Below are positions 911-61,845 of a stretch of DNA of 64,000 nt, in pieces. Made by a program: the position numbers and the translations under genes. The stretch's first letter is position 1; the number at the start of each line of letters is the position of its first letter. This stretch comes from a virus. The DNA lies in IMG/VR virus record IMGVR_UViG_3300031994_000101, positions 1 to 64,000 of that record; one strand, given 5' to 3'. Under the pieces are notes generated by a model. The model worked only from the letters and a program-made list of their open reading frames with translations. It was not told the origin of the DNA and ran no database searches.

Positions 911-1993
911 TTAGAAACCGTAGTTGCCGCCGTAGCCTCCGAACATTCCGTTAGGATAGATGCCGCCGCTCACGTAAGGCGTAGCGTTGACAGCCACCAG
1001 GTTCGGGTACTGCACGCTCACGGTGTTAGGCAGCTTGCACTTGATGTCGTCCACCTCCTTGTTCAGGGCAGCGAGCTGTGCGTTCACGGGAGCCATCGTC
1101 TGACCGACCACACCAGCGATGTACTGGTTCTGGTTAAGCTGCGAAATCTCGCCGGCCAGTTGTGTGTTCTTCTCGCGGGCAGCATCGAGCTTGTCCTGCA
1201 GCACCTGGGTCTGCATGGCGTCGAGCTTGGCCAGAACGGCCTGCGTGTTGCGGTTCGCGCCGTCGGTGAGGGTGTAGGTCTGCTGGCAGGTGGCCAGCTC
1301 GTCCTTGCCTGCGTTGAGAGCCATCTGCGTCTGGATGCCAGAGAGACCGCGCTCTACACCGTTGAAACCAGTGTTCAGACCCATCTGCACGCCGTTGAAG
1401 CCGGTGTTCATGCCCTGCTGCAGCTGGGATGTCTGTTCGGCGATAGCGAACTTGTTGTCGCAGCAGCACTGACAGAGCTGCTGGCTCAGGGCTGCGTTGC
1501 CAGCCTGGATGCTGTTGATGATCTGCAGCGGAGTCATGCCCTGCTGGGCAGCGATGCTTGACAGCGAGCTCTGGATGAGCTGGATGCCGCTGTTGACGAG
1601 GTTGAAGTCCTGGCCGAGCATGGTCGAAAGGGTCTGCGTAGCCGTGCGTGCCTGTTCGCCCTGCGAGGTGACGGCCTGCATGATGAGCTCACGCCCGTTG
1701 TCGTTGTTCAGCTGGTTGGCGAGGAACCCTACGCCGTTTGCGCCTCCCATGCCGCCGAAGCCGCCGTTACCGTTCCAACCGAACATGCTGGCGAGGATGC
1801 CCATGGCGAACAGCTCTGTGATGTTGTTCATATTCATGGCGTTCCATCCGCCATAGCCGCCGCCGAAGCCGCCGAAGCCCATGCCGCCGCTCATGCCCGC
1901 TCCGAGCATGAAGGGCACGATGCCGTTGGCAAGCGCATTACCTCCATTGCCGCCGTTCGAGTCGGGAATAGAGAAAACTTTCATGTCACTCAT
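911..1993 (-). CDS. Gly-rich / coiled-coil hypothetical protein (likely structural); start chosen at MSDMKVF
   Basis: Long ORF; GGxGG repeats at N-term, Q/N/L-rich heptad-like central region; internal ATG at 1991-1993 chosen over upstream ATG at 2065. Confidence 0.55.
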   Translation of the reverse strand: MSDMKVFSIPDSNGGNGGNALANGIVPFMLGAGMSGGMGFGGFGGGYGGWNAMNMNNITELFAMGILASMFGWNGNGGFGGMGGANGVGFLANQLNNDNGRELIMQAVTSQGEQARTATQTLSTMLGQDFNLVNSGIQLIQSSLSSIAAQQGMTPLQIINSIQAGNAALSQQLCQCCCDNKFAIAEQTSQLQQGMNTGFNGVQMGLNTGFNGVERGLSGIQTQMALNAGKDELATCQQTYTLTDGANRNTQAVLAKLDAMQTQVLQDKLDAAREKNTQLAGEISQLNQNQYIAGVVGQTMAPVNAQLAALNKEVDDIKCKLPNTVSVQYPNLVAVNATPYVSGGIYPNGMFGGYGGNYGF

Positions 1994-2146
1994 TGTTGTA
2001 AAGTGTTTGTGTTGGTGAATAATGTGAATTAACTCGCGGGTCGGGAAATCCGAACCCACGGGCAAAGTTATTCACTAATCACTTGACTATGAAGCAAATG
2101 AAAGCATATCGCCGGAAGCCTGCTGTTCATCCGTGAAGCGGTGGTT

Positions 2147-2638: not shown

Positions 2639-3187
2639 CTACTCGCCGGTGCCGCCGCTTGCGGGGAACAGGGCCTCGTAGGGAGTCCAGTCGATAGCGT
2701 CCTTCTCCTGCCAGCCGGCGGCCTGCAGACTATGGATATGGTCTGTGGCGTGCTGGTAGAAGTCCTCTGCTTCGGTCATTGTCACGAAGGTGTGGTAGAC
2801 GGGATTACCTTCTGCGTCCTCGCCCATCTTGAAGGTGACGGGCAGGTTGTCACCGCTGGTCTGTATGGCACGGGTATAGGCAGCCATGAAGTTGAGCTGC
2901 TGCTCTACGGAGAGCCACACGGGGATTTGCTCGCCATCGGCAGATGTCCACACCAGACCGGAAACGATTCTCTCGGTAGTACGGGCGTTGATGTCGGTCA
3001 AGATGGCTTTCTTCACGTCGGCAAGCGAAATGGTGGCGTGCTGACGCTTGTAGAGATACACCTCATACCAGGAGGCAAGGCCGCCTGCCTGTTCAGGCTG
3101 CTGCAGTCCATAACATACGGTGACGCGCGAACCCTCGTCGCGCAGTGGAGCGTAGTCGCTCACGGGTCCTGTGGTCTTGTTCATCAT
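2639..3187 (-). CDS. hypothetical protein (182 aa)
   Basis: ORF in track immediately downstream of DGR RT on same strand. Confidence 0.5.
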   Translation of the reverse strand: MMNKTTGPVSDYAPLRDEGSRVTVCYGLQQPEQAGGLASWYEVYLYKRQHATISLADVKKAILTDINARTTERIVSGLVWTSADGEQIPVWLSVEQQLNFMAAYTRAIQTSGDNLPVTFKMGEDAEGNPVYHTFVTMTEAEDFYQHATDHIHSLQAAGWQEKDAIDWTPYEALFPASGGTGE

Positions 3188-3273
3188 TGTGATAATTATT
3201 TAAATGGGTGAATAATGATTTTATCGTGAGGCTGCGATACCATTGCAGCATACTGGACGGAGGGAGATTTCCG

Positions 3274-4470
3274 CTATGCGGCTCGCTGCATACAGGTCAT
3301 GTCGGCGTCGAAGTGACCGATGCGCAGGTACTCGGGCCGGAAGAACAGCTCGCGGCGCAGGCGGTAGCTGGCCGTCTGGCGCAGGATGCCGAGGTAGGAG
3401 TTGACCGTGCGCACCACCTTGTCGGGACGGCTGAAGTCCATCTCGCGCAGATGGCGGTGTATGTGCCGCAGCGAGGCTGCCGACGGCGTGATGTGCCACG
3501 GACGGACGTAGGCTCCCAGGAACTCCACGCCCTGCGTCGAGCGGCAGATGCACACCTTTCCCATGTGCAGGTCGAGTGCAAGCTCCTGCTTCAGGAACCG
3601 CCGCACCTTCGGGACCAGCTGCAGCAGCCACTCGCGGTCGCACGACACGACGTAGAAGTCGTCCACGTAGCGGCCATAGCGACGGCATTTCAGCACACGC
3701 TTCATAAACTGGTCGAGCACGTTCAGGTAGACGTTCGACAGCAGCTGCGAGGTCAGGTTGCCGATGGGCAGTCCGCACCCGTCCTCCGTGCAGAAGAGCG
3801 ACTTTGCGGGATCGAGACCGTTCCACGCCTCGATGGGCATAGCCCTCTCGCAGGATGTCTTCGGGTCGAGCATGGCGATGACCTCCGTCAGCCAGCGCAC
3901 GAAGTCCATGTCGAGCACCTGCTGCCACGTGCTCCGTGGTGATACGCCGAGCACCGCTGCTGCCTCCTTCGGCAATCGGTGCGTGGCCATCCTGTCGAGC
4001 GTCGAGAGGCATATCCTGAGCAACCGCCGTCTGTCGATGTGCATAAAATAGCCGCGAATGTCGAGCTTCAGGATGTAGCACTCGCGGGTATAGCCGCGGC
4101 TCTCCTGCCGGATGTGCTGCGCCAGCCGCAGGATGCCGTCGAGCGTGCCGCGATGCTCGATGCACGAGTACGAGTCGCGTATGAACGTCGCCTCGTAGAG
4201 CCAGTGGGTATAATAGAAGTACAGATGATGCACCACCCTGTCGGGAAACTGCGCCGCGAACACCTCTCTCTGCTTGGGATGGAACACGATGAAGCACCGC
4301 GACGGCAGCGGCACGTAGCGACGCAGGATGAGCACCAGTGCCAGGCACGCCAGGTTCTGGCGCAGCTGTGAGCGGAAGTGGCGGACGTAGCTCATCTTGC
4401 CCTTGTGGCGGGCAGCACTGGCGAAGGCCACGTGCAGGTCGCGCAGCAGTTGTGGATATGTAAGCGTCAT
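3274..4470 (-). CDS. DGR reverse transcriptase
   Basis: RT motifs LDIRGYF, PIGNLTSQLLSNVYLN (DGR-specific IGxxxSQ), RYGRYVDDFYVV (YxDD), LHMGK, GVEFLGAYV; adjacent TR/VR pair. Confidence 0.92.
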   Translation of the reverse strand: MTLTYPQLLRDLHVAFASAARHKGKMSYVRHFRSQLRQNLACLALVLILRRYVPLPSRCFIVFHPKQREVFAAQFPDRVVHHLYFYYTHWLYEATFIRDSYSCIEHRGTLDGILRLAQHIRQESRGYTRECYILKLDIRGYFMHIDRRRLLRICLSTLDRMATHRLPKEAAAVLGVSPRSTWQQVLDMDFVRWLTEVIAMLDPKTSCERAMPIEAWNGLDPAKSLFCTEDGCGLPIGNLTSQLLSNVYLNVLDQFMKRVLKCRRYGRYVDDFYVVSCDREWLLQLVPKVRRFLKQELALDLHMGKVCICRSTQGVEFLGAYVRPWHITPSAASLRHIHRHLREMDFSRPDKVVRTVNSYLGILRQTASYRLRRELFFRPEYLRIGHFDADMTCMQRAA

Positions 4471-4513
4471 CAGACTGCGGCGTTAAGAAGAGAAAGAATG
4501 GCCGCTGAGATTG

Positions 4514-4700
4514 CTGGACCGGCCGAACCGGGAAACCGTTGTACCGATTGTTCGTGTTCTGCGGGTTGACACCATTCGGATTGAAGTTCAGGTTCCGGGC
4601 GTTGCGAGCCGAATTGAACGTCGACGACCAGAAGTTGCCATTGCCCGTGCGATTGTTCCACGAACGACCATTGCCGTTGCCGGACGCCGGAAGGAAAAGA
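4514..4700 (-). repeat. DGR template repeat (TR), 187 bp
   Basis: Near-identical to 5657..5843; 16 mismatches all at TR adenines (coding/minus strand); translation Asn-rich (AAC codons). Confidence 0.88.
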
Positions 4701-4851
4701 GCTTCGGTCGCCACCTTACACGACGGCAGCGAGGGGTTGCACGTGGCAAGACCAGACTGTCTCTTCACTGTTTCACACCCCCTGCGGGGGCATGACGGGC
4801 GACCTATGAAATACTTCCGGACCATTCTTTTTATGGGTTATCAGTTTTTGT

Positions 4852-5532
4852 TTAGAGATGCGCCAGCAGTTCGCGCTGCACCTCTTCAAGGAATTTGTGA
4901 GCATCTATCGGCGACGTGCGGTGAAGCGGCAGCGACATGATGCGCCCCATGATGGCGAGGATGTGGCCGGGCGTATCGCCCATCGCGCCGCCACGACCCT
5001 GACGGTCGCCGTTGGCGCTTTCTTTCTTGCCCTTCTCATTCGACAGCGGCTGTTCGCTCTTCCACTTCTGATAAGCGGCCTGCAGGCGCTCATAGGTCAG
5101 CTCGCCGTGGTCGTCGGGCATCTGGACGGGCACGTCGATGCGCCCGTCCTCCACGTCGCGCCAGTCGAGCACCAGTTCCTTGGGCAGGTACTTGTCGAAC
5201 GACTTCTCCTGGAATCCCACGAAGATGTATTCACCGTTGATGTTCTTGGCGAATTTCTTCACCGGCGTGGGCGGGTCAATCTCCATGTCGGGGTGCAGTC
5301 GCTTCATCTGCGAGGTGATGACCACGGCCACCAGCCACGCGCTCCACTCGTTGGCGTGCCAGTAGTTTCCATCGCGCAGCAAATGAACCACGTTCCACTT
5401 CTCAGGCTCCTTCCTGTCGGCCTCGATGGTCTGGATTTCCTGGTTGGTGAATCCCTTCCGCTCGCCCTGCTGCCTGAGCAGCTGGACTTTGGCAGACGGC
5501 TGGTTCTGTTGTTGTGTCTGTTCTGTTGGCAT
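4852..5532 (-). CDS. DGR accessory protein candidate (226 aa, positionally equivalent to avd but not Avd-like)
   Basis: ORF between target gene and TR on same strand; no recognisable family. Confidence 0.55.
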   Translation of the reverse strand: MPTEQTQQQNQPSAKVQLLRQQGERKGFTNQEIQTIEADRKEPEKWNVVHLLRDGNYWHANEWSAWLVAVVITSQMKRLHPDMEIDPPTPVKKFAKNINGEYIFVGFQEKSFDKYLPKELVLDWRDVEDGRIDVPVQMPDDHGELTYERLQAAYQKWKSEQPLSNEKGKKESANGDRQGRGGAMGDTPGHILAIMGRIMSLPLHRTSPIDAHKFLEEVQRELLAHL

Positions 5533-5583
5533 ATCTCTATTTGTCTGTTATTTTTTCTGTTGGTTTCCTTCGTCCGCCCCACT

Positions 5584-5620
5584 GCTGCTGTGCCGCGCTG
5601 GGACGCGGCGGTGCAGCAGT
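5584..5620 (-). promoter_or_regulatory. GC-rich stem-loop downstream of VR (candidate DGR target-recognition hairpin)
   Basis: GCTGCTGTGCCGCG-ctggga-CGCGGCGGTGCAGCAG inverted repeat ~40-70 nt 3' of VR, absent next to TR. Confidence 0.5.
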
Positions 5621-5653
5621 GAAGCGCACAAAGGAATGGTTCGGGCGGAAGTA

Positions 5654-6547
5654 TTACTGGACCGGCCGAACCGGGAAACCGAGGAACCGATTGAACGCGT
5701 CCTGCGGGTAGACACCATTCGGATAGAAGTTCAGGCTCCGGGCGTAGCGAGCCGAATGGAACGTCGACGACCAGAAGTAGCCATTGCCCGTGCGATTGCC
5801 CCACGAACGACCATAGCCGTTGCCGGACGCCGGAAGGAAAAGACGATTACCGTTGATCTTCGAGCGCAGGTAGAGACCGTTGATGCCGTTTACCGTCACG
5901 CGCTTGTCGGCAGCCGTCTTGGCGATGCTGGTCTCTGCCGTCACCACGTTGCCGTCGGCGTCGATGTAGTCGATATTGGCGAACAGTTCCGAGAAGTCCT
6001 CCATGCTTGGCATGCGCCAGGGCGCACCGAGGCAGGCGCGCGCGGCGTCCATCGAGGGCGGTATGTTGCCCGTGAGGGCGTTGCCGGGTGTCGTGCCGTA
6101 GGGCTGTCCGTCGTAGTAGGGCTCCTGCTCGTTCACGCCGCCCCAGTTGTAGTCAAAGGCGGATGTGCTGCTGGGATTGTGTCCGTCCTGGTTGCCCCAA
6201 GAGAAGAATGAGCACTCGTACTTGAAGGGCGATACTGCGCCGTCCACCTCCTGGAATTTCGACGGCGTGGTGAGGTCGATGGAGGCCTTGGCCCAGAGCG
6301 TGCCGGAGGGCAGGCCCATGTCTACGAAGAGTTCCGAGTCGACGTAGGGCTTCTGGTATTCCAGGATGTCGGAGAGTTTCTTGCCCGTCTTCAGGTCGAT
6401 GACGGCATCTGTCGAGAGGGCCGTCTTGTTGGCGGGCGTACCGTCGGCGCTGAAGAGCATCACCTGTTGGGTTTTGCCGGCGGTGATGGCTGTCGTGAGG
6501 TCGCTCTGCACGGCCTTCAGGGCGTTAAGCTGTGTGATTGTTTCCAT
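5654..6547 (-). CDS. DGR variable (target) protein, DUF1566/C-type-lectin-fold-like C-terminus (..GRSWGNRTGNGYFWSST..FLGFPVRPVQ)
   Basis: VR occupies last 187 nt incl. stop; YFWSST motif typical of DUF1566-type DGR targets. Confidence 0.85.
   Translation of the reverse strand: METITQLNALKAVQSDLTTAITAGKTQQVMLFSADGTPANKTALSTDAVIDLKTGKKLSDILEYQKPYVDSELFVDMGLPSGTLWAKASIDLTTPSKFQEVDGAVSPFKYECSFFSWGNQDGHNPSSTSAFDYNWGGVNEQEPYYDGQPYGTTPGNALTGNIPPSMDAARACLGAPWRMPSMEDFSELFANIDYIDADGNVVTAETSIAKTAADKRVTVNGINGLYLRSKINGNRLFLPASGNGYGRSWGNRTGNGYFWSSTFHSARYARSLNFYPNGVYPQDAFNRFLGFPVRPVQ
5657..5843 (-). repeat. DGR variable repeat (VR)
   Basis: Aligned to TR by eye: substitutions only where TR has A (A->T,C,G), identical GC-rich 3' 24-nt (IMH-like). 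Confidence 0.88.
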
Positions 6548-6655
6548 TGCTGTGTTGTATTGTTTCGTGTTTACTGTTTCTTTTACAAAGAAGATTGCGG
6601 CGGTGCCGTCGACGGCATCCCATCGGCTATGCGCTGACCACCACCGTGCGGCTCA

Positions 6656-7075
6656 TCAGCTCGGCCACGTTCTGCAGCAGCTGCTGGCGGGTGTACTGCT
6701 CCCGTTGGCAGTGTATGTCTCGCCCTCTAATGCCGTTATCCGTGCGTTGAGCTGGCTGATCCAGTACTCTATGCTTGCGTCGGTGAAAACCTCCCACCCC
6801 TCATTGGGCGCCGGGTCGGTGACGGTGAAGGCCATCTTGCCGTCGACGATATTCACCACGAACTTCCCGTCCTGCACCGTCAGCGTGCATGGCAGGTTCT
6901 GCGTAGCGGCGGTGGCGCGGTAGAGCACCCCGTTGATGCCTACGACGGCGTTCTTCGGGAATGTCGATGCAGGCGTGAGCGTCGAGATGTCCACGGGCAG
7001 CAATGCCCCGGCATTATAAGCCATCTGCAACTGCCTGAGGTTGACGGCCTTTTCAAGAGTTTTTTTGCTTGGCAT
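6656..7075 (-). CDS. hypothetical protein (139 aa; possible 3' frameshift, alt frame ends ..ELMSRTVVVSA)
   Basis: ORF in track; +1 frame at 3' end encodes C-terminal motif shared with 550..894 product. Confidence 0.45.
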   Translation of the reverse strand: MPSKKTLEKAVNLRQLQMAYNAGALLPVDISTLTPASTFPKNAVVGINGVLYRATAATQNLPCTLTVQDGKFVVNIVDGKMAFTVTDPAPNEGWEVFTDASIEYWISQLNARITALEGETYTANGSSTPASSCCRTWPS

Positions 7076-7148: not shown

Positions 7149-7715
7149 TTACTCGGCGGGCAGTCCGAGGGCTGTGCGCACCTCCGCATCGGTGGCAAAC
7201 TCGCCTACGATGTAGCCGGCCTGGGCGTGGTCGCCCCAGCCATAGGCGGTGTTGGCGTTGTCGAGGCTGGTCTGCACGGCCTGCACGAGCTTGGCCTTGG
7301 CTACGGAGCCGTCGGCCAGGTCGCCTGTGATCTTGTGGTCCTGCGAGATGGTCAGCTGCACGGGCTTGCCCGTCTGGTCGCCCAGCTCCAGATACTCCAC
7401 GAGTCCGCTGGCGTCGATGTAGTCGTAGGTCTCGGTCTCGCCGGTGGCGTTGGTCTTCACCTTCAGGAAGATACCGGTGTTGCCCTCGCCGTCCTCGCTG
7501 GCGAAGCCGACTACGCTGTTGATGTAGTCCTTGGGGATGTCGATGACCACGAGGTCCTGACCTCCCTTCTTGAAGGTGTAGCTGCGGAGCATACCAGTGG
7601 TGGTAGTCTCGGTGCTTACGGTGATGTCCTTCGCTGCGCCTGCAGCGTCGATGGCCTGCTTGATGAGAGCCAGGTGCTCCATGTTAAGAGCACTGTTTGC
7701 ATTGGTCTTTGCCAT
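7149..7715 (-). CDS. hypothetical structural-like protein (188 aa), C-term ..FATDAEVRTALGLPAE
   Basis: ORF; shares C-terminal motif with 7808..8122 product. Confidence 0.55.
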   Translation of the reverse strand: MAKTNANSALNMEHLALIKQAIDAAGAAKDITVSTETTTTGMLRSYTFKKGGQDLVVIDIPKDYINSVVGFASEDGEGNTGIFLKVKTNATGETETYDYIDASGLVEYLELGDQTGKPVQLTISQDHKITGDLADGSVAKAKLVQAVQTSLDNANTAYGWGDHAQAGYIVGEFATDAEVRTALGLPAE

Positions 7716-7807: not shown

Positions 7808-8122
7808 TCAGAGTCCGAGGGCGGCACGCACGTCGTCGTCGGTGGCGAAGTGGTTCTCCATAGCCTCACGGGCCTTGGGCGAGAGGTCGTGCAGCTGTAC
7901 GCTGTCATCCTCTATCGACTGGCTGTTGACTTTGCCGTCGGCTATCTTGCCGTCGGGTGTCACGATGTCTACGGTCACTCCGCCGTCGGCGGGCATCTGA
8001 AGTGTGCGCTGGTGTACGCGGATGTGCCGGAGCACGTTCGTGCCGTCCTCCAGTGTCTCATAATACAGGTGAAGCTGCTGCGCGATGACATGCTTCAGTT
8101 TGTTGATGTCTGGTACAGTCAT
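7808..8122 (-). CDS. hypothetical protein (104 aa), C-term ..FATDDDVRAALGL
   Basis: ORF; paralogous C-terminus to 7149..7715. Confidence 0.5.
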   Translation of the reverse strand: MTVPDINKLKHVIAQQLHLYYETLEDGTNVLRHIRVHQRTLQMPADGGVTVDIVTPDGKIADGKVNSQSIEDDSVQLHDLSPKAREAMENHFATDDDVRAALGL

Positions 8123-9231: not shown

Positions 9232-9525
9232 ATGAAACAATACTTCAGGAATCTTCTTCAAATTCTGCAGGGCAAAAACCCGTATCAGGCTGAGCGCGAC
9301 GATCTGGAAGAGAAGTTGCGACTGGCTGGCGAGAATGTCCGTGGCTTGAACAACCTCTATTATAAAGCGTTGGAGAAATGGGAGAACGAAAGGAAAAAGG
9401 TTGCCTCGCTTCTGCAGCTCGTGGAGAACCTGAGGGAGCGCATCTCCGACAAGGACGCCATCATTGAGAAGCAGTGGCGCGAATACGATAAATTCTTCAT
9501 TGAAGAAAAAAGTAAGATGAAATGA
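9232..9525 (+). CDS. coiled-coil hypothetical protein (97 aa)
   Basis: ORF, charged heptad-like sequence. Confidence 0.45.
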   Translation: MKQYFRNLLQILQGKNPYQAERDDLEEKLRLAGENVRGLNNLYYKALEKWENERKKVASLLQLVENLRERISDKDAIIEKQWREYDKFFIEEKSKMK

Positions 9526-10454
9526 CACATGCATCAGTATTCAGCGGCATCGGTGGTCCGGAGGTGGCGGCAAGCATGCTCGGATGGGAGAACCTCTTCC
9601 ACTGCGAGATCAATCCCTTCGGTCGCGCTGTGCTCGACTACTGGTACCCAAACGCAGAATCGTATGAAGACATCACCAAGACAGACTTCTCCAAATGGGG
9701 GGGGCAAATTAACGTACTCACAGGAGGGTTCCCTTGTCAGCCTTTCAGTTTCGCCGGGCAGCGACGAGGAGCGGACGACGACCGCTATCTCTGGCCGTTC
9801 ATGCACAGGTGTATTAACCAAGTCAGACCCGATTGGGTTGTGTGTGAGAACGTTGCTGGAATCACGACGATGGTCGAACAAGGCGACGTTACTCCGCTGG
9901 CAGACGCAGCCGACCTATTCGGAGCGGATAACCGACTACGAAGATACCGACTCAGAGAGACCTTTACCCTTGAACGCATCTGCCGTGATATCGAGGCAGA
10001 CGGATATGCAGTCCAGCCGGTGCTTATACCGGCTTGTGCCGTTGGAGCCCCGCACCGGAGAGACCGCGTGTTCATCATCGGGCGAAGGACTGCTGCCGAC
10101 ACCTGTCGTGGTAGACAATCCACATCCGAACAGCAAGGTCAACGAGCAGGGCAGGCGGTACAACCACAAGGCAGAGTCCAGTCACTCGATGGGCTTGGCA
10201 GACTTGGCACTGCATCATCTCCTGCCGACGCCGAAAGAGCTGGCTGCGGGCGTTGGGAGCTATTCCCTACTCAGTCCCCTGTACACTCAGGAAATGATGG
10301 GCTTTCCATTGGGATGGACGGAGCATCCATTCCTTTCAACAAATGGCGGAAGGAGGCCCTCAAAGCCTACGGCAACGCCATCGTCCCGCAGGTGATGTAC
10401 GAGATATTCCGCGCCATCGTGCAGGTGGAGAACAAAATCCATAATATATCGTGA
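9522..10454 (+). pseudogene. DNA (cytosine-5)-methyltransferase with apparent +1/-1 double frameshift flanking the target-recognition domain
   Basis: Frame A: FSGIGG (I), GGFPCQPFSFAG (IV), VCENVAG (VI), QPVLIPACAVGAPHRRDRVFIIG (VIII), ..AYGNAIVPQV (X); frame B (9529-frame) carries LLPTP and EMMGFPLGW motifs between ~10085 and ~10325. Confidence 0.6.
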
Positions 10455-41867: not shown

Positions 41868-42830
41868 ATGATTGATCCCGACAATATCTACAACATGGAC
41901 TGCCTCGAAGGACTGCGGCAGATGGAGGACGCGACGGTGGACTGCTGCGTCACGTCGCCGCCCTACTTCGCCCTGCGCGACTACGGCTGCGAGGGACAGA
42001 TAGGACTGGAGCAGTCGCCGGAGGAGTACATCGCCCGGCTCTGCGACGTGTTCCGCGAGGTGCTGCGCGTGATGAAGCCCGAGGCGACGTGCTGGGTGGT
42101 AATCGGCGACACCTACGCCGGCAGCAACAAGGGTGCGGCCTGCTACCCCGACAACGCCAAACTCTATCTGCAGGGCACCAACGCGGGGACGCTCGACCGC
42201 GCCACCTCCTACCGCTTCGACACCGTGGCTAAGGATCGCGACCTGATAGGCATACCCTGGATGCTGGCCTTTGCCCTGCGCGACATGGGCTTCTATTTGC
42301 GGCAGGATATCATCTGGCAGAAGCCTAACCCGATGCCGGAGAGCGTGAAGAACCGCTGCACCAAGTCACACGAGCACATCTTCCTGCTTACCAAGCAGCC
42401 ACGCTACTACTTCAGCGTCGATGCGCTGCGCGAGCCTGCCAACACCGGCATCCGTGCCCATGAGTATAACCACCGCAAGGTGAAATTTACCGTCCAAGGG
42501 CACCGGAATGTGCAGTTTCGTGGCGGCAACCAGAGCGACAGTTTCCGCAATAAGCGCGACGTGTGGCCGATACTGGTCAAGCCCGGCTACGAGGGCCACC
42601 ACGCCACCTTCCCCGTGGAGCTGCCTCTGCAGTGCATTGCCCTCGGCTGCCCAGTGGGGGGGGTAGTTCTCGATCCTTTTATGGGCACGGCCACCACTGC
42701 CGTCGCCGCATACCGCATCAGACGCCACTATGTGGGTTTCGAGCTGTCGCCCGACTATCACGCTATCTGTCTGGAGCGCCTGCGCCAGGAGCGACAGCAG
42801 CAGCGGTTGGAGTTTGAGGAGGAAGAATGA
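41868..42830 (+). CDS. DNA methyltransferase, beta-class (N6-adenine or N4-cytosine; SPPY)
   Basis: N-terminal CVTSPPY (motif IV) and C-terminal VLDPFMGTATTAVAA (motif I). Confidence 0.8.
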   Translation: MIDPDNIYNMDCLEGLRQMEDATVDCCVTSPPYFALRDYGCEGQIGLEQSPEEYIARLCDVFREVLRVMKPEATCWVVIGDTYAGSNKGAACYPDNAKLYLQGTNAGTLDRATSYRFDTVAKDRDLIGIPWMLAFALRDMGFYLRQDIIWQKPNPMPESVKNRCTKSHEHIFLLTKQPRYYFSVDALREPANTGIRAHEYNHRKVKFTVQGHRNVQFRGGNQSDSFRNKRDVWPILVKPGYEGHHATFPVELPLQCIALGCPVGGVVLDPFMGTATTAVAAYRIRRHYVGFELSPDYHAICLERLRQERQQQRLEFEEEE

Positions 42831-42883: not shown

Positions 42884-43324
42884 ATGGAAAATTGGATTTT
42901 AGTTAAAAACCTGGATGGCGAAGATATAAAAGTTCGCCAGAACCGTGCTTACGGTGACATCTTTGTTGACGAGCAAGGTAGGGAATACGTGGCGAGTGTT
43001 CTTGACTTTACCGGCGCACGTCTTGAGATACCCGACTTCAACGAGCAGAACAAAGAGGACCTGAATACGCTGAAGGATATGATGAAGTCGATGGACGCCA
43101 AGGCCATTGCCGACCATAAGGCCGTGATTGACGAGTTTGAGTATTGGAGAAAGTTGCGTGGTGAAATTTTCATGGAAATGTATCGCGACCACTTGGTCAA
43201 GAACGACGGCAGAAAGTCTGAGGACGATCTGCTGAACAAGACAAAGTACCTTGTCAATCAGCTGTGGCAACAAGACCAGGATTTCACATCTGACAAAAAG
43301 GTGTTTCATATTCCTGTCAAATGA
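42884..43324 (+). CDS. hypothetical protein (146 aa)
   Basis: ORF. Confidence 0.5.
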   Translation: MENWILVKNLDGEDIKVRQNRAYGDIFVDEQGREYVASVLDFTGARLEIPDFNEQNKEDLNTLKDMMKSMDAKAIADHKAVIDEFEYWRKLRGEIFMEMYRDHLVKNDGRKSEDDLLNKTKYLVNQLWQQDQDFTSDKKVFHIPVK

Positions 43325-44946
43325 ATAAAACATTAACGCGCATGAAACAAATAACAGCATTATACATCGACCTGTTCTGCGGGGCAGGCGGCACGTCGAG
43401 CGGCGTGGAGTATGCGCGACTGGACGGGAGGAAGTGTGCCGAGGTGGTGGCGTGCGTCAACCATGACGCGAATGCCATCAGGTCGCACAAGGCAAACCAC
43501 CCGCACACGCTCCACTTCACCGAGGACATCCGCACGCTGGAGCTGTCGCCGATGGTGAAGCATCTGGAGAAGAAGCGGCGTCAGTACCCCAAGGCAAAGG
43601 TGGTGCTGTGGGCGAGCCTTGAATGTACGAACTTCTCGAAGGCGAAGGGCGGACAGCCGCGCGATGCCGACAGCCGGACGCTGGCCGACCACCTGTTCCG
43701 CTACATCGAGGCGCTGCAGCCCGACTATATCCAGATTGAGAACGTGGAGGAGTTTATGTGCTGGGGTGCGCTCGACGAGAACGGCAAGCCCGTGAGCCGT
43801 GACCAGGGCAGCGACTACCTGCGGTGGGTGAGACAGGTACAGGCCTACGGCTACGACTTCGACTGGCACGTGCTGAACGCTGCCGACTTCGGGGCCTACA
43901 CCTCACGCAAGCGCTTCTTCGGGCTGTTCGCCCGCAAGGGACTGCCGATAGCGTTCCCCGAACAGACCTTCGCCAAGAACGGCGACGAGGGCGGCATGTT
44001 CCATCAGTACCGGCGGTGGCGGGCCGTGCGCGACGTGCTTGACCTCGACGACGACGGCGAGAGCATCTTTGTGCGCCGCAAGCCGCTATGCGAGAAGACA
44101 CTGGAGCGCATCTATGCCGGACTGGTGAAGTTCGTGGCGGGAGGCAAGAAGCGGCACGAGGCGTGGATATTGAAGTACAACTCGATGAACCGGCAGAACC
44201 ATCACAATGCACCGTCCATCGACGAGCCGTGCCCCACGGTGGCCTGCCAGAACAGGCTCGGACTGGTGAAGTGCCAGTTCCTCTCGAAGCAGTTCAGCGG
44301 CGACCCCGACAGCAAGAACATAGACATCGAGCAGCCCGCCGGCACCGTGACAACCATCGACCACCATGCCTTCGTGACGGCATACTACGGCAACGGATTC
44401 AATTCGTCGATTGACAGTCCGGCGCCCACCGTCACCACCAAGGACAGAATTTCGCTGGTGACGACAAAGTTCATGGATAACCAGTACGGCAAGAGCAAGC
44501 CGTCATCTATCGACGGGCCAGCGCCGACGCTTGTCAACAATCCCAAGCAGAAGATTGTGTCGGCGCAATACCTGATGAACCCTCAGTATCAGAGCGACGG
44601 CGGCAGCATCGACAACCCTTGCTTCACGCTGATAGCCCGGATGGATAAGATGCCGCCATACCTGATTACCACTAAGGAGGGCATGGTGGGTATCGCCATC
44701 TATGAGAGCGACAGCCCCTGGACGCGCAAGGTGAAGGAGTTCATGGCCGCATACGGCATTGTTGACATTTGCATGCGCATGCTTAACATCGGTGAGCTGA
44801 AGCGCATCATGGGCTTCCCCACCGACTACGTGCTTATCGGCACGCAGGCCGAACAGAAGAAATACATCGGCAATGCGGTCGAGGTGAACATGAGCCGCGT
44901 GCTCTGCGAAGCCCTGTGCAGGAAGATTAAGAGTATGAATCAATAA
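43321..44946 (+). CDS. DNA (cytosine-5)-methyltransferase (541 aa)
   Basis: LFCGAGG (I), IENVEEF (VI), ..RIMGFPTDY..GNAVEV (IX/X). Confidence 0.75.
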   Translation: MNKTLTRMKQITALYIDLFCGAGGTSSGVEYARLDGRKCAEVVACVNHDANAIRSHKANHPHTLHFTEDIRTLELSPMVKHLEKKRRQYPKAKVVLWASLECTNFSKAKGGQPRDADSRTLADHLFRYIEALQPDYIQIENVEEFMCWGALDENGKPVSRDQGSDYLRWVRQVQAYGYDFDWHVLNAADFGAYTSRKRFFGLFARKGLPIAFPEQTFAKNGDEGGMFHQYRRWRAVRDVLDLDDDGESIFVRRKPLCEKTLERIYAGLVKFVAGGKKRHEAWILKYNSMNRQNHHNAPSIDEPCPTVACQNRLGLVKCQFLSKQFSGDPDSKNIDIEQPAGTVTTIDHHAFVTAYYGNGFNSSIDSPAPTVTTKDRISLVTTKFMDNQYGKSKPSSIDGPAPTLVNNPKQKIVSAQYLMNPQYQSDGGSIDNPCFTLIARMDKMPPYLITTKEGMVGIAIYESDSPWTRKVKEFMAAYGIVDICMRMLNIGELKRIMGFPTDYVLIGTQAEQKKYIGNAVEVNMSRVLCEALCRKIKSMNQ

Positions 44947-60558: not shown

Positions 60559-61845
60559 GATTTTAGTGCGGGAATGCCCTTTCCTTCAGGTAAGGGATGA
60601 AAGCACCCCGTATGTTAATAATTTAGATATCTATCTCAAATATTCGACACTCTCCAAAATATTTCATACCTTTGCCGCATGATTGCCTACAAATACAAGC
60701 TGTATCGTACCGATAGGACGAAGCACCTGGATAAGATGCTCCGCGAGGCTTGCTTTGTGTGGAACCATGCTCTGGTCATGCAGAAGCGGTACTACCGTCT
60801 GTATGGCAAGTACATCAATACGAACAGGATGCAGAAACATTTCGCCAAACGTATATCGAGAAACCTGCTGCATTCGCAGACCGTTCAGGAGATTCTTCAG
60901 CGGCTCGATACCGCCTATCAGCGATTCTTCAGCCGTCTGGCCAAGCGTCCCCCGAAATTCCGCAAGGCAAAGGATTTCTCTTCCATCCTGTTCAAACAGG
61001 GCGGCTATTCCCTGAATGGCAACGTCCTGACAATAAACAGCATCAAGAAACGCTTCAAGTTCTCGTTGAGCCGTCCGTATGCAGGAAAGGTCAAGACCCT
61101 CACCGTCAAACGGAACCACATCGGAGAGTTCTTCATCGTCATGGTGCTCGATCAGTCCCCTCAGTCCATCGGAAAGTCACATAATGGTGCATCCGTCGGT
61201 ATCGACTTCGGACTGAAGAAGTACATGACGATGAGCGACGGCACGACTGTTGACAATCCGCAGTTCCTGAAGAGCGGACTGCGCCAGTTGCAGCGTAAGT
61301 CTCGGAACCTCTCGAAATGTGTGCCTGGCTCCCATAACCGGGAACGGAAGCGTCTGGATCTTGACAGACACTATGAGAAGGTGGTCAATCAGCGCAATGC
61401 CTTCCAGTGGCATCTCGCCCATCAGCTGTGCCAGAAGTACGATAGGATATTCATTGAAGACCTGCAACTCACTGGCATGTCTGCCCTCTGGGGCAGGAAG
61501 ATGGCCGACCTGGCACACGGGGAGTTTGTGCTGAAGCTCCAGTACGTGGCCACCAAGTATGGTGTCACCGTCCACAAGATCGACCGCTACTACCCGTCAT
61601 CCAAGAGGTGTACGTGCGGCTACGTGAATCATGGCCTGCAACTCCATGAGCGTACATGGGTATGTCCTGAGTGCGGCACAGTCCACAAGCGGGACTTGCT
61701 TGCAGCCAACAATATTCTTCGGCAGGGCATTGCCGAATTGGAGAGTGTCAGTAAGTCAAAGAACGCCGTTGGCGCTTCTTCGCGGTCACGCCTGCATCCA
61801 AGAATCTCATTCCTTCAGGGGTGAGAGTATGTCAAAAAAACGACA
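60559..61845 (+). mobile_element. IS200/IS605-family TnpB-only element (IS1341-like); ends approximate
   Basis: tnpB ORF flanked by subterminal hairpins sharing CCTTCAGG core (60577..60596 and 61805..61826); TTAC at 60555-58 just outside putative LE. Confidence 0.55.
60679..61824 (+). CDS. tnpB: TnpB (OrfB) RNA-guided nuclease-family transposase accessory protein
   Basis: N-term IAYKYKLYRT..; GIDFGLK (RuvC-I); zinc finger CTCG..CPECG; RuvC-III ..DLLAANNI. Confidence 0.85.
   Translation: MIAYKYKLYRTDRTKHLDKMLREACFVWNHALVMQKRYYRLYGKYINTNRMQKHFAKRISRNLLHSQTVQEILQRLDTAYQRFFSRLAKRPPKFRKAKDFSSILFKQGGYSLNGNVLTINSIKKRFKFSLSRPYAGKVKTLTVKRNHIGEFFIVMVLDQSPQSIGKSHNGASVGIDFGLKKYMTMSDGTTVDNPQFLKSGLRQLQRKSRNLSKCVPGSHNRERKRLDLDRHYEKVVNQRNAFQWHLAHQLCQKYDRIFIEDLQLTGMSALWGRKMADLAHGEFVLKLQYVATKYGVTVHKIDRYYPSSKRCTCGYVNHGLQLHERTWVCPECGTVHKRDLLAANNILRQGIAELESVSKSKNAVGASSRSRLHPRISFLQG

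Follow-up and report, generated by a model that had tools for sequence, protein, structure and literature searches.

The DNA examined here, positions 1 to 64,000 of the virus record IMGVR_UViG_3300031994_000101 (hereafter the window), carries a diversity-generating retroelement (DGR) at positions 3274-6547 on the minus strand. Four parts follow one another colinearly on this strand: a target gene that ends in the variable repeat (VR), a gene for an accessory protein, the template repeat (TR), and a reverse transcriptase (RT) gene (Table 1). All of the defining parts of a DGR are present and intact. An initial annotation had read the locus in the same way; its coordinates for the RT, accessory and target genes were correct, and the motifs it named, IGxxxSQ (here PIGNLTSQ), YVDD and YFWSST, were all found in the translations. 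We are highly confident that the cassette is a genuine, intact and recently active DGR, which is the best overall explanation of the locus. The carrier is a large (~134 kb) uncultured Bacteroidales phage, probably with a Prevotella-like host. As a DGR, the element is unremarkable and belongs to a very common class. Its architecture is a variant one, without Avd and with an uncharacterised accessory protein and a structured RNA located 5' of the TR.

Table 1. Positions of the parts of the cassette in the window.
Feature	Position	Strand	Description
DGR reverse transcriptase gene	3274..4470	-	398 aa, isoelectric point (pI) 9.7; motif 4 PIGNLTSQ, catalytic YVDD
Bracketing duplex, 3' strand	4493..4504	-	CGGCCATTCTTT; 6 nt beyond where TR/VR identity stops, 22 nt ahead of the RT start codon
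TR	4514..4700	-	40 adenines; 23 A-containing codons, 17 of them AAY
Conserved structured RNA	4700..4816	-	~117 nt; directly 5' of the TR and 3' of the accessory stop codon (4852-4854)
Bracketing duplex, 5' strand	4818..4830	-	AAAGAATGG.CCG; pairs with 4493-4504, just upstream of the RNA element
Accessory gene	4852..5532	-	226 aa, pI 6.1; between VR and TR
Long GC-rich inverted repeat	5565..5636	.	candidate hairpin/cruciform target-recognition element; starts 17 nt past the target stop codon
Target gene	5654..6547	-	297 aa; C-terminal ~165 aa putatively CLec2-type (Fib_succ_major / Lcl_C-like), ending in the VR
3' end of VR, IMH-like segment	5657..5680	-	GGTTTCCCGGTTCGGCCGGTCCAG; identical in TR and VR
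VR	5657..5843	-	last 62 codons of the target gene; 16/16 TR mismatches at TR adenines

Template and variable repeats and recent activity

Pairwise alignment of 4514-4700(-) with 5657-5843(-) is gapless over 187 nt and contains 16 mismatches, and the TR base is an adenine at every one of these (9 A>T, 5 A>G, 2 A>C). The alignment and the tally of substitutions thereby bear out what had been counted in the initial annotation. Given 40 adenines among 187 TR positions, the probability that 16 of 16 mismatches fall on adenines by chance is 1.1e-12. All changes are at codon position 1 or 2, and 14 of the 16 are within AAY codons. None of the 23 adenine-containing TR codons, 17 of which are AAY, is able to become a stop codon, and the potential diversity amounts to 4^40 = 1.2e24 DNA variants and up to 4e23 protein variants. 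The full extent of repeat identity (4510-4700 / 5653-5843) is wider than the interval reported earlier. The sole TR/VR difference that does not involve a TR adenine lies just 3' of the 187-nt interval, where the target stop codon is TAA in the VR and the TR has CAA; no transfer of this T/C difference was seen in any related locus. A 24-nt probe from the repeat end matched two copies only, the TR and the VR, and no second VR was found in the 64 kb.

The RT matches the profiles RVT_1 of Pfam (2e-12) and phrog_1423 of PHROGs (6e-74). Its best sequence match in the PDB is 8ub7 (E 4.5e-27), which ranks above group II intron and retron RTs. We take 8ub7 to be the structure of the BPP-1 DGR RT (bRT) because its printed residues agree with the alignment to GenBank brt. 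The identity between the RT and GenBank brt is 26% over 301 columns, and placement of the RT in the DGR clade is based on its motifs together with the profile and PDB sequence matches. An insertion of ~55 residues relative to bRT is situated between the fingers motifs of the RT (residues ~159-218).

Evidence of recent activity comes from a sibling genome in IMG/VR (L004, IMGVR_UViG_3300011989_000005, 134 kb), which shares 98.8% identity with the window in a 5.5-kb block surrounding the cassette. Among the 66 differences in this block, 22 are inside the 187-nt VR, and 21 of these 22 are at TR-adenine positions. The two TRs differ only once, by T>C at position 34, and the genome with the C at this TR position also carries a C in its own VR. 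This pattern of VR and TR differences requires homing after the split of the lineages. As far as can be read from the two genomes, it shows that information flowed from TR to VR after the two phages had separated, and the mirroring of the T>C change in the cognate VR indicates that the element has therefore been active recently. The initial annotation had pointed to population-level VR heterogeneity from mapped reads as a check on its reading. The near-identical sibling largely supplies this variability, in the form of two assembled genomes rather than mapped reads.

We consider it very improbable that the cassette is a fossil, that is, a formerly active DGR in which the TR/VR differences are a mere historical record. 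The evidence of activity does come from assembled genomes and not from heterogeneity at the level of reads, and decayed cassettes that have a target and an accessory stump but no RT do occur in the family (L075, L086). In the window, however, the RT, accessory gene, TR, structured RNA and hairpin are all intact, and 98.8%-identical genomes differ at 21 TR-adenine sites of the VR, as opposed to a single TR site that was itself copied into the VR. The decayed cassettes were observed in Bacteroidales genome bins (L075 3642-5180, L086 4162-5153), where a CLec-type lipoprotein target is followed by an N-terminal stump of the accessory gene; neither an RT nor a TR/VR pair was detected in these two.

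The last 24 nt of the repeat are the same in TR and VR, and the first 22 of these are adenine-free and GC-rich. This repeat end resembles an integration boundary of the initiation of mutagenic homing (IMH) type, and cDNA integration would be predicted to end within it. The inverted repeat that follows the VR is predicted to fold, as DNA, with -32.1 kcal/mol (5565-5636, z -6.4). In 6 of 6 close loci the structure of this hairpin is kept while its sequence is different, and of 27 more distant cassettes, 23 have a strong hairpin after the VR. A hairpin/cruciform after the VR is needed for efficient homing in BPP-1 (PMC3240598), and by analogy the hairpin described here may act in target recognition. 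Matches to Rfam on the hairpin were spurious and miRNA-like only. Separately, the hairpins of distant cassettes (L017, L019, L023, L032, L033, L038, L051 and others) have a conserved asymmetric internal loop, CTACC[CAGT]A[GA], on the 3' side, which is absent from the clade of the window and may be a sequence-specific recognition element.

Structured RNA and bracketing duplex

Between the accessory gene and the TR we identified a conserved structured RNA, which emerged through comparative analysis only: a single-sequence fold of 4380-4860 was indistinguishable from shuffles (z -1.5). The RNA comprises a TTCAYAGG box and, after it, a 7-bp closing stem P1 with a 3' strand that reaches to the TR; its other elements are a P3/P4 stem and the variable hairpin P2. 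In a MAFFT seed alignment of 28 loci (A6), 86% of cells are paired, compared with 33-53% when the partners are slid; changes on both sides occur in 20 of 22 pairs, and the covariation score is 0.67 as against at most 0.22 in controls. For example, one pair of P1 is CG in 14 sequences and UA in the other 14, and is broken in none.

A covariance model (R1) built from the seed alignment gave 61 matches at E <0.01 in 720 kb, 33 of them outside the seed. There is exactly one match in the window and at most one per locus; all matches are on the strand of the accessory gene, and they lie between this gene and the TR wherever TR coordinates are known. The model also matched 5 of 5 independently fetched loci, which brings the number of matches to 66. 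An alignment of the 61 sequences (A7), which was fitted to the model, is 90% paired, with compensatory changes in 22 of 22 pairs.

Rfam 15 contained no RT-associated or Phage_DGR match at E <= 1 (3000-7000) or E <= 10 (4440-4860), and the weak matches over these intervals were to unrelated miRNA, snoRNA and CRISPR-repeat models. As a positive control, RF03022 (Phage_DGR) scores 104.7 bits in BPP-1, between TR and brt. RF03022 is the RT-10 motif of Weinberg et al. 2017 (PMC5737381). The RNA of the window is unrelated to it and is 5' of the TR, in contrast to the 3' position of RF03022 in BPP-1; it lies across the template from the one DGR RNA that has been characterised. The gap from TR to RT is ~40 nt in the window, and ~40-60 nt when its closest relatives are included.

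The RNA element and the TR are bracketed by two short strands that pair with one another. A compensatory change distinguishes the window (AAGAATGG/CCATTCTT) from close relatives (AAGGATGG/CCATCCTT). Across 29 loci, cognate flank pairs have a mean stability of -18.3 kcal/mol compared to -11.9 kcal/mol for non-cognate pairs (Mann-Whitney p 4e-8), and the cognate partner ranked first to third of 29 in 18 loci. This duplex recalls the cPRT Stop duplex of Avd-containing DGRs, in which sequences up- and downstream of the TR pair (bioRxiv 10.1101/2023.10.23.563531); the conservation analysis of RNA elements in that work was restricted to Avd-containing DGRs.

Accessory protein

Avd is present in most DGRs, but not in all of them. 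The accessory protein of the window consists of a disordered N terminus, an alpha/beta core (aa 25-165), a basic disordered linker and a conserved C-terminal helical hairpin. It has no match in Pfam, PHROGs, NCBIfam or PDB sequences, and none by tblastn in 50,697 phage records. That the gene encodes Avd was ruled out: a profile of 137 family members compared with BPP-1 Avd by hhalign gave a probability of 0.2%, and there was no Pfam match to Avd. Among 10 neighbouring ORFs of the window scanned with Pfam there was no Avd-family gene, and precomputed Pfam annotations contained none within ~7-8 kb in 7 related loci.

A word search recovered 41 clusters of the accessory family at 90% identity, and an exhaustive search 419 representatives at 50% identity; the exhaustive search of representatives was needed, as a word-indexed search with the family profile added few distant relatives. 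The best 145 of the representatives have a median length of 186 aa and a median pI of 5.8. In one protein encoded on a 5.7-kb Logan contig (P0004, 391 aa), the N-terminal two-thirds of the accessory protein (93% identity) are joined to RVT_1. This may be a deletion/fusion variant, or an artefact of assembly or gene calling.

An AlphaFold model of the full-length protein had a pLDDT of 69, and two fold searches were uninformative. The core domain (aa 25-165), modelled with a deep alignment, reached a pLDDT of 96. Using hhalign, the 137-sequence profile aligned with residues 1-130 of E. coli MutS (E 5.4e-4, probability 30%), such that the family motif G-x-[FWY]-[YW]-[RH]-A corresponds to GDFYEL and FVGFP..S..KY to MAGIPYHAVENY. 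Of 137 members, 134 have an aromatic residue where MutS has Phe36, and Arg or His occupies the position of Glu38. A narrow profile of 28 sequences gave nothing against E. coli MutS or the PDB, and Pfam MutS_I was found in 0 of these 28 members. The MutS signal comes from the 137-sequence profile and the trimmed-domain model only, which are weak and mutually consistent, and describing the core as MutS-domain-I-like is accordingly a consistent but weak assignment.

Two roles of the accessory protein have to be considered. It could functionally replace Avd as a cofactor of the RT, binding the 5' RNA and keeping the ribonucleoprotein assembled, with the MutS-like fold being incidental; we judge this to have nearly an even chance of being correct. 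The gene is found exactly where avd would be, between VR and TR, there is no Avd gene within ~7-8 kb either here or in the 7 related loci, and more than 60 cassettes contain both the protein and the RNA motif in one-to-one correspondence. In BPP-1, moreover, the flanking RNA wraps both RT and Avd (bioRxiv 10.1101/2023.10.23.563531). Against a replacement of Avd, the accessory protein is acidic to neutral (pI 6.1; family median 5.8) whereas Avd is basic, and it has neither a recognisable RNA-binding domain nor similarity to Avd.

Alternatively, the protein may be a stand-alone MutS-domain-I-like module that binds the mismatched cDNA:VR heteroduplex, or shields it from host mismatch repair, and thereby raises the yield of diversified VRs. 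An anti-repair role is suggested because deletion of host mutS increases the homing of a Bacteroides DGR 5-10 fold (bioRxiv 10.1101/2024.11.15.621889). We regard this role as less likely than not. All of the similarity scores are weak, and the Glu of the MutS Phe-X-Glu motif is replaced by Arg or His in the accessory family. An anti-repair role alone would also not account for why the protein is so tightly linked to the RNA motif, or why no other cofactor gene is present, and the MSL (MutS-like) genes that have been described accompany avd, which is absent from the cassette of the window.

MSL accessory genes were reported in Legionella and some Bacteroides DGRs, always together with avd (Wu et al. 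2018, architecture D; PMC5758913; Macadangdang et al. preprint; bioRxiv 10.1101/2024.11.15.621889). Compared by description only, the protein of the window resembles them as a small neutral protein with weak similarity to the mismatch-recognition part of MutS, and its size and pI are within the described ranges (112-283 aa, pI 7.2 +/- 1.7). It differs in that avd is absent from the window cassette and from its relatives. Similarly, CH1 is an acidic, motif-less accessory of avd-less 'Lineage 3a' DGRs of the Bacteroides lineage (Wu et al. 2018, architecture E; PMC5758913). The cassettes described here share with the CH1 type their Bacteroidales hosts, the lack of avd, HRDC or a recognised MSL gene, and an acidic accessory without an identifiable motif. 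CH1, which was likewise compared by description only, is smaller and more acidic (160-169 aa, pI 4.7) than both the family median and the 226-aa protein of the window. Our findings are thus partly anticipated by the avd-less lineage 3 with CH1 of Wu et al. The accessory family and the RNA are undescribed in the curated libraries queried, and we found no description of them in the literature on DGRs that we consulted.

Target, distribution and proposed mechanism

The initial annotation had described the target as DUF1566-like with a C-type lectin fold. The YFWSST motif is present, and the target matches Fib_succ_major weakly (E 2e-4, 22 bits), below the curated cut-off of 33.9. Related targets give weak and mixed matches to Lcl_C (formerly DUF1566) and Fib_succ_major, one of them above the cut-off. 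Mixed DUF1566/Fib_succ_major matches have been described for CLec2 'category d' targets, for example in the Legionella DGR (Wu et al. 2018; PMC5758913), with which the window appears to share this type of target domain. The target has no signal peptide.

Judging from sequence and position, the target is probably a receptor-binding or tail-fibre tip protein of the phage. That it is instead not a receptor-binding protein of the virion but some other binding protein encoded by the phage, for example for adhesion to mucus or glycans, or for action inside the host, appears unlikely to us. Hardly any of the neighbouring genes are annotated, and the targets of cellular members of the DGR lineage are lipoproteins, secreted multi-domain proteins and kinase fusions, both of which would be compatible with such a function. 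However, signal peptides are absent from the phage versions, and the target of related phages comes after very large ORFs that are presumed to be structural, none of which is annotated. Furthermore, a DUF4376 gene follows the cassette, the N terminus of the target has a motif in common with an adjacent protein that gives a tail-fibre match, and the phage DGRs surveyed previously mostly target structural proteins (bioRxiv 10.1101/2020.04.01.020958). As an example of cellular targets, a Ser/Thr protein kinase domain is fused to a diversified lectin-like C terminus in L023 (2758-4857) and L024 (3141-4823).

The cassette lies close to the beginning of a block of minus-strand genes (1-8.8 kb), which abuts a divergent plus-strand replication/methylase block encoding a primase-like protein and three DNA methyltransferases. 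Its placement in a late region next to tail-fibre-like genes, as proposed in the initial annotation, is weakly shown by one PHROG tail-fibre match (E 9e-4), the downstream DUF4376 gene and phage-only families without assigned function. Two small proteins upstream of the target, encoded at 7149-7715(-) and 7808-8122(-), have a common C-terminal motif, FATD(A/D)(E/D)VR(T/A)ALGL, and the N-terminal KAVQSDLTTAI of the target (6479-6519) resembles VQAVQTSLDNA (7245-7285) of the 188-aa protein. These motifs may be modules that tail-fibre-like proteins share for attachment or assembly. A 384-aa protein of phrog_16490 (unknown function), encoded at 911-2065(-), belongs to the same strand block as the DGR and lies downstream of it. 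The N-terminal third of this protein is rich in glycine (GGNGGN, GFGGFGGGYGG), and the Gln/Asn-rich stretch after it resembles a coiled coil. The three methyltransferase genes are at 9522-10454, 41868-42830 and 43321-44946 on the plus strand, and the 541-aa methyltransferase among them has 55-58% identity with methylases from phages of Bacteroides and Porphyromonas. The window also contains a transposase gene at 60679-61824(+) (phrog_506, E 4e-90), which may represent an insertion sequence. No tRNAs were found in the window.

Prevotella and Bacteroides belong to the genera in which DGRs are most abundant. The accessory family is present in seven IMG/VR contigs, five of 122-142 kb and two shorter ones, and the metagenomic contigs that carry relatives range from a few kb to ~140 kb. 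The order target-accessory-TR-RT is common to these related viral and metagenomic loci. Combined with an adenine-biased TR/VR pair, it was observed in 5 close viral or metagenomic loci and in ~35 loci of Bacteroidales genomes; 5 further loci have the gene order alone, without a TR/VR tally. The genome collection was scanned with a subfamily alignment, as the 137-sequence alignment is without a conserved stretch. Out of 80 loci fetched from Bacteroidales genome bins, 48 have an RT directly downstream, and it is among the 80 that the ~35 adenine-biased VR-accessory-TR-RT arrangements were found; loci with only an accessory stump have no RT. Most of the close phage-type loci have a DUF4376 gene after the cassette. 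The lineage spans rumen and gut Bacteroidales genome bins as well as large phages.

GenBank phages have no nucleotide similarity to the first 25 kb of the window. The DGRs of Bacteroidota phages in GenBank (B. uniformis phage F2 being among the matches listed) likewise have DGR-type RTs, but the best identity of the RT of the window to that of any phage in GenBank is ~35%, and the accessory protein has no match there. In one close relative (L005, IMGVR_UViG_3300028591_000109) we noted a 981-nt direct duplication with 91% identity (1439-2413 vs 2977-3952), located upstream of a truncated accessory match, which may consist of duplicated target or tail genes.

To our knowledge, mechanistic understanding of DGRs derives almost entirely from the RT-Avd-RNA complex of BPP-1. 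The cassette of the window resembles the BPP-1 DGR (mtd - avd - TR - brt) in the order of a target with a 3' VR, an accessory gene, the TR and then the gene for the RT, with the same strand logic; in adenine-only mutagenesis; in a homologous RT with IGxxxSQ and YxDD motifs; in the pairing of sequences up- and downstream of the TR; and in a GC-rich adenine-free repeat end with a hairpin after the VR (PMC3240598). It differs from BPP-1 in lacking Avd, in having an accessory protein unrelated to Avd, in the identity and position of its RNA, in its probably CLec2-type rather than Mtd-type target, and in the insertion in its RT.

The best-supported account of the cassette is ordinary mutagenic retrohoming. 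A transcript that starts just past the accessory gene and enters the RT gene would contain the 5' structured RNA, the TR and a short 3' flank. Pairing of its flanks would bracket the RNA domain and the TR, and could place the 5' RNA domain beside the end of the TR at which priming takes place. The RT, aided by the 226-aa accessory protein, would then copy the TR into cDNA and insert random bases opposite adenines. The accessory protein might serve as an RT cofactor on the 5' RNA, act on the mismatched heteroduplex, or do both. The cDNA would replace the VR at the 3' end of the target gene, with its 3' limit in the adenine-free GC-rich repeat end and with the downstream hairpin assisting target recognition. 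The predicted outcome is up to ~4e23 variants of the lectin-like C-terminal surface of a putative receptor-binding protein.

Going beyond this account, we tentatively suggest, at somewhat less than even confidence, that mutagenic retrohoming in the Bacteroidales lineage takes a form independent of Avd. Here, a MutS-domain-I-like protein and a 5' RNA would replace Avd and the 3' spacer RNA in a permuted ribonucleoprotein, and the duplex would hold the RNA at the priming end. The accessory protein may additionally link cDNA synthesis to the protection of the heteroduplex from mismatch repair.

In conclusion, we describe a widespread DGR lineage with three delimited components: the accessory family (419 clusters at 50% identity), a ~117-nt covarying RNA, and a bracketing duplex. 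These components make the priming and control of cDNA synthesis in Avd-less DGRs directly testable. The cassette is compact, and could also be considered for engineering targeted diversification in Bacteroidales.

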